Program-made: the position numbers and the translations under genes
The notes under the pieces: model-generated
Seen by the model: only the letters and a program-made list of their open reading frames with translations
Databases searched by the model: none
Told to the model about the DNA's origin: nothing
In this document: positions 22,528-53,376 of the stretch, piece by piece
Layout of the letters: each line of letters begins with the position of its first letter
Numbering within the stretch: position 1 is the first letter of the stretch
Source of the DNA: Escherichia coli
Lineage (GTDB): Bacteria; Pseudomonadota; Gammaproteobacteria; Enterobacterales; Enterobacteriaceae
Direction: 5' to 3' (one strand)
NCBI RefSeq assembly: GCF_003334785.1
Contig: NZ_QOWV01000020.1
DNA: 61,363 nt

Positions 22528-23165
22528 TGGCTGATATTTTTTTTGACATAATATTATCTCCTTCTACACAACAATTCGTTCCGTTAAGGAAAAAGATTGG
22601 TGTCACAAGTATTTATTTATGATTAATCAGAGGGTTTATGACAGAGAAAAGGATGTATATTTCTGAGTAAACATGTACAGGCCTATGGGGTGACTATTTA
22701 ATGAGTAAATGCCGAATGATTTTCGGGGTGATGATTATAACTTGAGGAAAAATCCCAGCGTGGTTTGAGTAGTGTACCTGAGTGATATTTGTGTTATGTA
22801 TGCATTGATTGCAGCAGAATAAATATAGTTCAGGCTAGTATAGTTTGTGGTAGCTATGAGAATATATAATCTATTTTACCTATAAAATAATTTATATGTA
22901 TGGGGTTGTTTTTTTTAGGTTGTTTGTCTGTGCTTTTATATTCTGGAGATGTGCCTTGTATATAGGATTGTTTGTTGGTTGTATTTTTTAATGTTGCACT
23001 GTTGTGAATTTTTATTTTGATATGATTATTTCTTTAGTATAAGGAGAGAAAGGAACGAGAAAGTTAAATCTATTTATCCTAATCGCAATTTCATTGTTTA
23101 AATAATCACTATGGATTAATATTTTTTGCGACTCTGCTGAGTTACTGGTTTTAACTAGTGGTGTA

Positions 23166-23192
23166 AAAGGGATACCTTTTCGGTATCCCTTT
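23166..23192 (-). terminator. Rho-independent terminator downstream of fyuA
   Basis: Inverted repeat AAAGGGATACC-TTTTC-GGTATCCCTTT just past the fyuA stop, with a T-run on the minus strand. Confidence 0.6.
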
Positions 23193-23200
23193 TACAATAA

Positions 23201-25222
23201 TCAGAAGAAATCAATTCGCGTATTGATACCGACGGTGCGACCCATATTGACCTGCGCGACGGCGCTGCTGCCGTTCATGTAGCCATAGGTACGGTAACGA
23301 CGGTCGAACAGGTTATCGACATAGACGGAAATGTTCATCCGTTCAGTCGCCTGCCAGCCCAGGCTGCTGTCCAGGGTGGCATAGGTGCCTTGCCGCAACT
23401 GGTTGTCGCCATCGAAATAATGCGGCCCGACCAGATTAACCGCCAGTCGGGGCATCAGTGCGCCATAGCGCGTATCAATCACGCCGTTCACGCTGCTTCC
23501 CGCGCCATAACGTGGTACGAACGGCACCCGGTTACCGTGATACAACTCACTGTCATTGGTGAATTCGGAACGGATCACGTTGCCATTGATATCCCATGAC
23601 CAGCCTGGCGCAAACCGCCACTTCGCTTCAAGCTCAACGCCGGTGGCGTCGGCTTTACCCGCATTGCTTAATGTCTGCATCCCGACCGGGCCAGAGTAAA
23701 GCTGCATGTCTTTGGTGTGGGTATAAAACGTCGCAGCTTGCAGCGTGACGTCAGCGGTTTCGTAGCGGGTGCCAAGTTCATAGTTGATGGATTTCTCGGC
23801 GACGAACGGTTTGGCATCAAGACCCGCAGTAGGCACGATGTTGTACCCGGAAGGTTTATATCCCTGGGCTACACGGGTATACACTCTCCAGTCATCGGTC
23901 AGCATATAGCCTGCGGATAGCTGCCCGAGCACCTGATCGTCATTGCTCTTACCCTGGTCGCCAAACGGGTTGCCGAGCATGCTGCCGTGATATTGTGTAC
24001 TGGATTTATCATGCGAGAAGCGCACGCCGCCGCCGATATCAAAACGATCGGTTAAATGCCAGGTCAGGTCACTGTATGCGGCCAGCGTTTCAGCGGTGGT
24101 ATAGCCGGTACTGCTTAAATAAGGCATTGTCGGCATGTCGTAGGCTGAATTTAACTTCTCGCGGGTGTTCTGCCGGTACAGCCCAAACACCATATCAACG
24201 GTACGCGCATCGCCCAGGGTTGCGGCGCGCAGCTCCTGCACATCCTGATTCCAGCGCTGAGGCATATTGACGATTAACGAACCGGAAGGGAAGGTGCGCG
24301 AATAATGCTGCTGCTGCCAGGCGCTGATCAGGTTGAAAACCCAGTCATCGGTGGTGTATTTCCCACTCAGGGTCTGGCTGTCAGTGCAGCGCCGCATGTA
24401 CGGGTCTGGTGAACCATCGCTGATCGACAGCTTACGGCCCTTAATATCATTCCATCCCACATAGGCGTCCTGGGTGGCGCGGGTACATTCGCGTGAGGCG
24501 GCAAAGCCCATTTCCCAGGGCTGATCGTCCGGCGCCAGACGCAGTTTCACATTCCCTATGCTGGCGCGGGTGCCGCCTAAGTCATCGCTTCCCGTCGCGG
24601 GGTTAATCATGTCGCCGTCATCAACCTGGCGTAACAGGGTGACGCTGCCGTACAGCAGGCCATCCTGAATGGGGCCGCTCAGGTTGAACTTACTTCGATA
24701 ACTGTCGCGGCTACTGACGCCGCCTTCAATATAGCCGCGCGGCGTGCTGTCCGGCTGCTGGGTGACGATGTTGATGATCCCGCCCTGAGCGCTTTTGCCA
24801 TATAACGTTCCCTGTGGGCCTCGCAGCAACTCCACGCTTTGCACATCGGTAAGCGCCTGGATGGTGTTGGTGGAAAGCTGAGGGACGCCATCGACATACA
24901 GGGTGACGGCGGGGTTATAGAAGTCCTGCGCTGAAGAGACGCCGCGTAGCGAGATCGTCGAAAAAAGCATGTTGCCGCTATTTTCAATATTGAGCCCGGG
25001 CAAGACTCTGGGGAGTTTGTCGCTGGCGGTGACGCCGGCGTCGCTTAATTCCGGCGCGCTGACAACAGTAGACGAGACGTTGTTGGCTGATGCCGAGCGG
25101 GAAGATTGTTTACTGGCGGTAACCACCAGCGTGCTTTCGTCTTGCTGTGAAGTCTGGGCATTAGCAATGGCGGGGAGCAATAATCCCCCCAAGGCCAGAG
25201 GATAAAGCCGTGTCATTTTCAT
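23201..25222 (-). CDS. fyuA: TonB-dependent outer-membrane receptor for ferric yersiniabactin / pesticin
   Basis: 673 aa; signal peptide MKMTRLYPLALGGLLLPAIANA, N-terminal TonB-box region (ESTLVVTAS), C-terminal beta-barrel ending in an aromatic residue. Confidence 0.93.
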   Translation of the reverse strand: MKMTRLYPLALGGLLLPAIANAQTSQQDESTLVVTASKQSSRSASANNVSSTVVSAPELSDAGVTASDKLPRVLPGLNIENSGNMLFSTISLRGVSSAQDFYNPAVTLYVDGVPQLSTNTIQALTDVQSVELLRGPQGTLYGKSAQGGIINIVTQQPDSTPRGYIEGGVSSRDSYRSKFNLSGPIQDGLLYGSVTLLRQVDDGDMINPATGSDDLGGTRASIGNVKLRLAPDDQPWEMGFAASRECTRATQDAYVGWNDIKGRKLSISDGSPDPYMRRCTDSQTLSGKYTTDDWVFNLISAWQQQHYSRTFPSGSLIVNMPQRWNQDVQELRAATLGDARTVDMVFGLYRQNTREKLNSAYDMPTMPYLSSTGYTTAETLAAYSDLTWHLTDRFDIGGGVRFSHDKSSTQYHGSMLGNPFGDQGKSNDDQVLGQLSAGYMLTDDWRVYTRVAQGYKPSGYNIVPTAGLDAKPFVAEKSINYELGTRYETADVTLQAATFYTHTKDMQLYSGPVGMQTLSNAGKADATGVELEAKWRFAPGWSWDINGNVIRSEFTNDSELYHGNRVPFVPRYGAGSSVNGVIDTRYGALMPRLAVNLVGPHYFDGDNQLRQGTYATLDSSLGWQATERMNISVYVDNLFDRRYRTYGYMNGSSAVAQVNMGRTVGINTRIDFF

Positions 25223-25275
25223 TGTTGTGAGTCCCTGTAAGACGGCGAAACGCCAAAAATACCGACAATGGTGAA

Positions 25276-52030: not shown

Positions 52031-52223
52031 GAGTAACTGTTTTCTAACCTCACAACCAGACTGTCCAAAGACAATTGAGTCGCTCTTTGATTCCTCTGTG
52101 ACTCTATTGTCTTCTTTTGGGATAAAATAGGTGTTTTTCGTCATGAAGTTGATAAAAGTCTATATAGAACCACCTCCTGTGGAGGTGGTGGTAATTTGCC
52201 AGAGTGAGGGATTCGTTAGTATA

Positions 52224-53139
52224 CTATGGGATAAACTTATTTTTACCAATTGTATAAGGCGGTGCATAAGATTCTCGGCATGCTTCCAGATAATCCGACC
52301 ACCACTGCATCATCGCTTTGCGGGCTTCTAGGTGCTCTGCCTTATGAATATAAGCCATGCGCACGGTATTGCGCTCCTGATGACTCATCTGGCGTTCTAC
52401 TGCGTCCTTTGCCCATAAACCCGATTCCATCAGCGCACTGCATGCCATTGCCCGGAAGCCGTGACCGCAGATATCCTTTTTCGTGTCGTAACCCATCACC
52501 CGCAGTGCCTTATTGACCGTGTTTTCACACATTGGCTTATACGGGTTATGGTCGCCGGGGAAGATCAGTTCATTATTACCGGTGATATCCTTAATCTGTT
52601 TCAGAATGGCGATGGACTGTTCTGAGAGGGGGACGATATGCGGCATTCGCATTTTTGCCCCGCGGCCGGAATAACGCACGCCAATAATGGGTTCTCGCGT
52701 CGCGGGTATCGTCCAGACTCGGTTTGTGAAATCAATCTCTGACCAGCGGGCGAAACGCAGTTCACTGGAGCGAATGAACACATGCAGCATCAGCAGAACG
52801 GCATGCCGGGTCAGTTCACGGCCCTGATGATATGCCCCAATACGTTCAAGCAGTTCAGGCAGCCGCTCCAGCGGCAGGGCAGGATAGTGCCGTCTGACAG
52901 GAGGTGTGGTCACGCCGCCAAGGTTTGCTGCAGGGTTCGTATCGATTAACTCCTGATGGACCGCATGGCGCATTATGTTACTCAGGTGCTGCCGTGTGCG
53001 GGACGCAACCTCCAGCTTTGAGATACCAGTGGCGGGAGCCACCCGGCTTGACCAGCAGATACAGACCGTGAGAATCGGAGACTTTAAAGGGTTTATCAGA
53101 AGGCTTGAGGGTGCGGATTTTTGCGTCGGTAAGGAACAT
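52224..53139 (-). pseudogene. int: P4-type tyrosine integrase of the HPI, inactivated by internal deletion / frameshift
   Basis: ATG at 53139 gives MFLTDAKIRTLKPSDKPFKVSDSHGLYLLVKPGGSRHWYLK, then a stop. The rest reads in another frame (ORF 52224..53150) from ...TTPPVRRHYPALPLERLPELL through the catalytic region (...HGFRA..., ...RMAYIHK...). Span is about 916 nt against roughly 1.26 kb for intact P4-type integrases. Confidence 0.8.
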
Positions 53140-53300
53140 ATGGGGGTCACTCCATTATCGAACTAACCTGATCCCAGATTTGACCACCAATTTTTCCCGA
53201 TGCGTAGGGTAAAATCAAAATGCACCGAGAAGAGTTTTCACACTAACCTGTTGAATCAACATCAGATAAAGATTTGCAAGGATGCATGAAAACAGAAAAT

Positions 53301-53376
53301 TGGCTCCTCTGACTGGACTCGAACCAGTGACATACGGATTAACAGTCCGCCGTTCTACCGACTGAACTACAGAGGA
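53301..53376 (-). tRNA. asnT: tRNA-Asn (GTT), HPI attachment site
   Basis: Identical 76-nt tRNA-Asn; its 3' end faces the int remnant; mtfA and tRNA-Ser lie on the other side as at asnT. Confidence 0.95.

Follow-up and report, generated by a model that had tools for sequence, protein, structure and literature searches.

Does the GC-rich DNA beside a tRNA-Asn gene in a 61,363-nucleotide stretch of an Escherichia coli chromosome (contig NZ_QOWV01000020.1; hereafter the window) constitute a complete yersiniabactin high-pathogenicity island (HPI), and can such an island still make its siderophore and still move? An earlier note, drawn from the letters of the DNA alone, had proposed an island at 23160–53376 with a complete, functional-looking gene set and an integrase. 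Our analysis identifies the segment, with a probability of about 0.96, as the fixed "common type" E. coli HPI (yersiniabactin) adjoining asnT, and no evidence contradicting its identification as an HPI was found. The island is already known in each respect examined, including a deletion in its integrase gene and a truncated border, so that the description of a known virulence island, and not a new system, is confirmed.

An insertion at asnT with the yersiniabactin gene set

Comparison with K-12 MG1655 (2,040,000–2,066,000) showed the window to be an E. coli chromosomal segment in an order reversed relative to K-12. The msrP-msrQ-zinT stretch of K-12 aligned to 57152–55127, serU-mtfA-asnT to 54904–53297, and the sequence from the yeeJ 3′ end to past cobU to 19732–5853, the last at 97–98% identity. 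Five tRNA genes were found in the window using ARAGORN and Rfam, four for tRNA-Asn and one for tRNA-Ser(CGA), and the tRNA-Asn gene adjoining the island is asnT because mtfA and serU come next, as in K-12. Homology to K-12 ends 4 nt beyond the asnT 3′ end and restarts within yeeJ at 22195; relative to K-12, all the DNA in between is inserted. The 17-bp attachment core CCAGTCAGAGGAGCCAA lies at the asnT 3′ end (53300–53316), and no second copy was found outside the window's four asn tRNA genes with up to 3 mismatches allowed; the fyuA side is without a repeat. The island measures 31,101 bp and has a GC content of 57.7%, compared with 46.1% and 44.3% in its flanks, which bears out the GC-rich block of the earlier note and is in line with the literature values of 31 kb and 57% GC for common-type asnT HPIs of many strains. 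An Rfam scan of the whole window returned the five tRNAs only, with no riboswitch or small RNA match in the island.

The island carries eleven ybt genes in the conserved HPI order, ybtS-X-Q-P / ybtA / irp2-irp1-ybtU-T-E / fyuA (Table 1). All eleven are open, without internal stops and of the same lengths as in UTI89, the strain used for experimental study of Ybt regulation, and their DNA identities to the UTI89 genes range from 99.45 to 99.85%. Common-type HPIs, such as those of UTI89, 536 (PAI IV) and NU14, share with the window the asnT site, the gene order, the gene lengths and a fyuA-side junction with a chimeric yeeJ frame. The encoded proteins also match solved structures. FyuA is identical to the Yersinia pestis pesticin receptor (PDB 4EPA) at 652 of 653 aligned residues, and YbtS to PDB 5jy9 at 430 of 434, with Irp9 (2fn0) also matched; YbtU matches the YbtU/Irp3 structures (PDB 4gmf and 4gmg; 834 bits), and fragments of HMWP2 match deposited HMWP2 and Irp2 domain structures in PDB. 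The near-identity to UTI89, the FyuA structure match and the asnT synteny uphold a yersiniabactin HPI at asnT and its similarity to characterised HPIs, as the note had claimed. The genes it named are all present in the order given, and RefSeq annotates the same genes in a genome that is 100.0% identical to the window over 22500–47000 (24.5 kb) and 99.98% identical across the whole island.

The block is present in 2270 of 5426 complete E. coli genomes (∼42%); in 2260 of those the match covers 80% of the query or more, and identity is nearly always at least 99%. Several isolates unrelated to one another, whose sources are humans, a pig, a cloacal swab and wastewater, have it at 100.0% identity. 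The HPIs of Y. pestis, Y. pseudotuberculosis and Y. enterocolitica carry the same siderophore system, likewise inserted at an asn tRNA gene; they keep both 17-bp repeats, have insertion sequence (IS) elements on the fyuA side and can be excised (PMC2606025, PMC8209727, PMC2801613). Collinear ybt loci are found in Klebsiella michiganensis, where fyuA and its upstream genes show 87% DNA identity and homology stops at the fyuA stop codon (23200), and in Salmonella enterica subsp. diarizonae, where identity is 96% and homology stops at 23168, in the terminator. Both loci are without the AT-rich tail that follows fyuA in the window.

The siderophore pathway and its regulation

Pfam scans on overlapping pieces of HMWP1 and HMWP2 gave the published domain order for each synthetase: ArCP-Cy-A(MT)-PCP-Cy-PCP for HMWP2 and KS-AT-MT-KR-ACP-Cy-MT-PCP-TE for HMWP1. 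In HMWP2, the C-terminal subdomain of the A domain appears as two pieces (974–1008 and 1348–1382) split by the embedded MT; the A-domain core motifs are present, and FDLSVYD fits the cysteine specificity code. Its carrier serines are at residues 52, 1439 and 1977, and its Cy motifs DxxxxDxxS at 246 and 1620. HMWP1 has the KS motifs TACSSS and HGTGT, the AT motif GHSVG and the TE motif GWSYG with serine 2980, and carrier serines at 1853 and 2858. The domain search suggested in the earlier note thus recovered KS, AT, A, Cy, PCP and TE, all with active-site motifs. The two giant synthetase frames are uninterrupted, as it had stated, irp1 running through 3163 codons without a stop and irp2 through 2035 codons from its ATG, with an open frame that extends to 2041 codons from an upstream GTG.

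Among the smaller proteins, YbtE scored 591 bits against TIGR02275, under the dihydroxybenzoate (DHB)-specific enzyme cutoff, and YbtT had no match in NCBIfam, its assignment being settled by Pfam. RefSeq annotates ybtP in a 570-codon form starting at 45924; the start at the 45834 ATG is supported because YbtP 1–600 matches chain A of the YbtPQ structure (PDB 6p6i) over its full length.

None of the parts that the island itself must supply is missing, and all look intact. In the established scheme of the pathway, which these parts would serve, YbtS would convert chorismate to salicylate, and YbtE would adenylate the salicylate and load it onto the first HMWP2 carrier domain. Two cysteines would be added and cyclised by HMWP2; HMWP1 would then add a malonyl unit, methylate and reduce it, add and cyclise a third cysteine, and release the product through its thioesterase. 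YbtU would reduce one thiazoline ring, with YbtT as an editing thioesterase, and the metal complex would re-enter the cell through FyuA across the outer membrane and YbtPQ across the inner membrane. The literature describes four operons (ybtPQXS, ybtA, irp2-irp1-ybtUTE and fyuA). By the same literature, iron limitation would relieve Fur repression, and the AraC-type regulator YbtA would activate the biosynthesis and uptake units.

The control regions contain candidate sites for both regulators. Upstream of irp2, at 44592–44625, is a perfect 12-nt palindrome, ACCCGAAACGGG / CCCGTTTCGGGT, and a near-identical copy stands in the fyuA promoter region; no further copies with at most 1 mismatch occur elsewhere in the window. 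The two palindromes fit the pseudopalindromic YbtA repeats of the literature and are putative YbtA sites. Across the four promoter regions, clear palindromes are seen at irp2 and fyuA only, with weak matches elsewhere. One of these, the YbtA-repeat-like site between ybtA and ybtP, has 3 mismatches and alone is within chance expectation; the literature places both Fur and YbtA sites in this region. A 19-bp Fur consensus found no match at up to 3 mismatches. At up to 5 mismatches it found 8 matches in 5 places in the 61 kb, and the five of these eight that fall at the irp2 and ybtA/ybtP promoters are suggestive of Fur sites.

From the gene set and its control regions, we infer that the source strain produces yersiniabactin and follows this regulatory logic. 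Several observations weigh against so complete an account. Relative to UTI89 there are 51 amino-acid substitutions over the 11 proteins, between 1 and 20 in each, including 20 in HMWP1, 10 in HMWP2, 3 each in YbtX and YbtQ, and 1 in YbtA. Neither the island nor the rest of the window encodes the phosphopantetheinyl transferase that the five carrier domains need for activation. The Fur-like sites differ from the 19-bp consensus at 4–5 positions, and when the control regions and borders were scanned for generic sigma-70 promoters and intrinsic terminators, nothing exceeded shuffled expectation; the scan results were not used as evidence. Finally, a scan of one genome per species for exact matches to a 24-mer of the fyuA 3′ end gave two loci and no Yersinia locus, and the Yersinia comparison therefore rests on the proteins of solved structure.

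The substitutions, 30 of them in the two synthetases, and the missing transferase would fit an island that is present and biosynthetically silent, in which missense changes or a lack of the transferase or of expression leave uptake through FyuA and YbtPQ with no synthesis. Non-producing HPI-positive strains are known, and CFT073 is used as a yersiniabactin-negative strain (PMC5634559). We regard a silent island as unlikely, if not negligibly so. No reading frame is interrupted or shortened, the catalytic and carrier motifs checked are all intact, and the 100.0% identity across several unrelated isolates argues against recent decay.

The island has lost its own means of excision and transfer

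Three losses have fixed the island: the integrase gene intB is frameshifted, the fyuA-side repeat is gone, and the conjugation module of the ancestral integrative and conjugative element (ICE) has been deleted. The complete, functional-looking set of the earlier note therefore stands for the siderophore core, which looks intact, and fails for the mobility part, which is degenerate in integrase, repeat and conjugation module. Compared with mobile HPIs and ICEs of the ICEEc1 and ICEKp1 type, the window has a broken integrase, one repeat, and nothing of the ICE genes except a 112-codon remnant.

The integrase that the note had listed proved to be a pseudogene with an internal deletion of 347 bp. 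The gene starts at 53139 with codons 1–41 intact, meets a stop 12 codons on, and has its catalytic domain in another frame. Alignment to the intact integrase gene of NZ_CP041392 (420 codons) mapped the deletion to columns 383–729, with the ATG at column 260, that is, to bp 124–470 of the 1263-bp gene, and placed the junction between 53017 and 53016. As 347 cannot be divided evenly by three, the deletion destroys the frame. NCBIfam PRK09692 accordingly matches intB at profile positions 159–396 of 413 only, and RefSeq labels the gene 'frameshifted' in the genome that is 99.98% identical over the whole island. The integrase of UTI89, in contrast, is a full-length gene with an internal stop.

This allele is not new. 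Paauw et al. (2010, PMC2801613) reported a truncated intB lacking the same bp 124–470 from Enterobacteriaceae isolates; its deletion has the coordinates seen in the window, with no difference at the level compared. The deleted 347-bp segment was found in 1999 genomes, compared with 2270 that have the island core, a difference of ∼270. For a 60-nt query across the junction, summary counts mix both classes, its 30-nt halves each passing the E-value limit; among the matches to this query, an uninterrupted junction was present in 3 of 25 evenly spaced rows. From the row sample and the difference, we estimate that the deletion is carried by roughly 12% of HPI-positive complete E. coli genomes.

The other end of the island is defined by comparison with genomes on both sides. 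HPI-negative genomes match the yeeJ side only to 22195. The ICE-type HPI (ICEEc1 of ECOR31), represented here by NZ_CP041392, has the same int-to-fyuA core as the window, the same AT-rich tail and the first 112 codons of the next hypothetical gene, with 98.8–99.7% identity over the shared stretch; its match runs from 22189 to 22916 at 98.8% and from 22903 on, through fyuA, at 99.7%. Because HPI-negative homology stops at 22195 and the ICE-type match begins at 22189, the island ends at about 22196. Of the limits first proposed, the asnT end therefore holds, whereas the start falls ∼1 kb short: 23160 is only where the fyuA terminator hairpin, readable directly from the sequence at 23165–23193, comes to an end, and AT-rich island DNA continues beyond it. 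A reading of 22196–23200 as a divergent E. coli backbone allele was considered and rejected, as this DNA is 98.8–99.7% identical to the post-fyuA DNA of the ICE-type HPI. The ICE-type tail is ∼207 bp longer than that of the window, at a T-rich repeat (window 22903–22916 versus 6728–6934 of locus L003).

In contrast to the window, NZ_CP041392 keeps an intact 420-codon integrase, and past fyuA it has a 308-codon hypothetical gene followed by AlpA-family, TraR-family and VirB-type conjugation genes, the last three of which are absent from the window. The deletion that removed the ancestral ICE conjugation module also took the start of yeeJ, which lost its first ∼218 bp and its upstream region in this border deletion. 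The result is an in-frame fusion. Residues 1–112 of the chimeric protein are 96% identical to residues 8–119 of the ICE hypothetical protein, which itself has no match in NCBIfam, and residues ∼107–219 are 87% identical to YeeJ residues 69–184. RefSeq calls the product 'inverse autotransporter beta domain-containing protein', and the YeeJ segment in it lies directly before the beta-barrel. That the fusion is expressed as a protein and serves some function of its own, and is not a scar, is a prediction from sequence that we consider very improbable. The junction region, 21800–23400, is covered over at least 80% in 2061 genomes. The border agrees with the 'unique deletion of the fyuA border' described for the E. 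coli HPI (PMC2606025) and with an HPI form described as truncated and immobile (PMC8209727).

The yeeJ remnant next to fyuA in the earlier note was confirmed by the K-12 comparison. Of K-12 yeeJ, the remnant retains only positions 5214–5545, 9239–9713 and 9996–11672, as numbered in the K-12 stretch compared (locus L002). Relative to K-12, the gene (19752–21871) also has two internal deletions, of ∼3.7 kb and ∼0.28 kb, and the adhesin gene is cut to about one third of its length.

Could the island nevertheless still move? A long open frame of 308 codons (52224–53150) spans the integrase catalytic domain and might yield a truncated integrase, and related P4-type integrases, found in many E. coli genomes, might act from elsewhere in the chromosome. 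Neither route would have a second site to work on, as no fyuA-side attachment repeat exists in the window even with 3 mismatches allowed. Moreover, the integrase has lost its arm-binding region and part of its core-binding region, and the GTG start of the 308-codon frame overlaps the native ribosome-binding site and has none of its own. The fixed state of this HPI form was published in 2009, and the literature describes it as fixed (PMC2606025, PMC8209727). We therefore consider continued mobility exceedingly unlikely. With no second attachment repeat, the island is fixed in place, and any spread would have to go through homologous recombination in the DNA flanking it, a route that the literature has put forward before.

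A strain with this island carries an established fitness and virulence factor, yersiniabactin, which serves iron uptake and, in published work, copper handling too. This helps in typing the strain and adds no new biology. What is of practical use is the corrected annotation: an intact-looking core, a known intB allele, an end at ∼22196 and a fixed island.

Feature coordinates and the rest of the window

Table 1. Features of the island and its borders (nucleotide positions in the window; residue positions for synthetase domains).
Feature	Position	Strand	Description and evidence
yeeJ remnant	19752–22195	-	chromosomal backbone; K-12 comparison; RefSeq pseudogene; intimin-like Ig domain matches
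Chimeric ORF	21799–22527	-	from border deletion; in-frame fusion of ICE gene and yeeJ
AT-rich island tail	22196–23200	.	33% GC; fyuA terminator hairpin and 5′ third of ancestral conjugative-element hypothetical gene
fyuA	23201–25222	-	TonB-dependent outer-membrane receptor, ferric yersiniabactin and pesticin; 673 codons; TIGR01783 498 bits
fyuA promoter region	25223–25352	.	near-identical palindrome copy 25309–25342; weaker Fur-like stretch downstream of palindrome
ybtE (irp5)	25353–26930	-	salicyl-AMP ligase; 525 codons; aryl-acid adenylating enzyme family; RefSeq annotation
ybtT (irp4)	26934–27737	-	type II thioesterase, GTG start; 267 codons; Pfam PF00975 E = 3.5e-69; RefSeq annotation
ybtU (irp3)	27734–28834	-	thiazolinyl imide reductase; 366 codons; TIGR01761 535 bits, cutoff 189
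irp1 (HMWP1)	28831–38322	-	3163 codons; Pfam and motifs
HMWP1 domains, first half	residues		KS 27–402; AT 551–846; MT 1093–1194; KR 1559–1729; ACP 1823–1888
HMWP1 domains, second half	residues		Cy3 1948–2341; MT 2593–2693; PCP 2832–2894; TE 2915–3139
irp2 (HMWP2)	38410–44517	-	2035 codons from ATG; Pfam and motifs
HMWP2 domains	residues		ArCP 22–82; Cy1 150–535; A 575–920; MT 1182–1279; PCP1 1412–1474; Cy2 1530–1905; PCP2 1952–2013
irp2 promoter region	44518–44707	.	Fur-box-like site 44562–44580; palindrome 44592–44625; 14-nt perfect hairpin 44644–44676 downstream of ybtA
ybtA	44708–45667	-	AraC-family activator; 319 codons; AraC C-terminal family matches; RefSeq annotation
Divergent ybtA / ybtPQXS control region	45668–45833	.	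overlapping Fur-box-like sites 45733–45757; weak YbtA-repeat-like site 45714–45726
ybtP	45834–47636	+	ABC transporter half; 600 codons from upstream ATG; ABC exporter-type family
ybtQ	47623–49425	+	ABC transporter half, permease fused to ATPase; 600 codons; ABC exporter family matches; annotation
ybtX	49418–50698	+	MFS (major facilitator superfamily) transporter; 426 codons; RhtX/FptX family match below cutoff; RefSeq annotation
ybtS (irp9)	50726–52030	+	salicylate synthase; 434 codons; TIGR03494 680 bits, cutoff 325
intB pseudogene	52224–53139	-	P4-type integrase; two-frame ORFs, profile match, alignment, RefSeq 'frameshifted'
asnT	53301–53376	-	tRNA-Asn(GUU), integration site; ARAGORN, Rfam and K-12 synteny

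The other tRNA-Asn genes of the window, asnV (9518), asnU (11927) and asnW (13751), show no insertion relative to K-12. The colibactin (pks) island is often found at asnW in B2 strains; as asnW is without an insertion here, the strain has the HPI without the colibactin island. Between 5853 and 19732, cobUST, ldtA, nac, cbl, yeeO, yeeN, amn and shiA are all open. In the same stretch, yeeL (18466–19581), a pseudogene in K-12, is an open frame of 371 codons, and its RefSeq annotation in a near-identical genome (99.98% over the region) is family 9 glycosyltransferase.

On the other side of the island, yodB (cytochrome b561), which occupies ∼1 kb of the zinT-serU interval in K-12, is missing; in its place are ∼220 bp at 54905–55126 that have no match to the compared K-12 stretch. 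Another HPI-positive genome has yodB as a pseudogene, interrupted by an internal stop. Beyond cobU, positions 1–5853 form a small decayed accessory region with phosphotriesterase-related, DMT transporter, glutamine amidotransferase and PfkB kinase genes and IS66 remnants. The PfkB kinase gene appears split in two frames, 2825–3550 and 3595–4038. Related genomes carry extra IS66 and IS3 copies in the matching region, and NZ_CP147059, a near-identical genome, carries between asnW and yeeN a copy of IS1A that the window lacks (14227–14241 versus 2966–3727 of locus L001).

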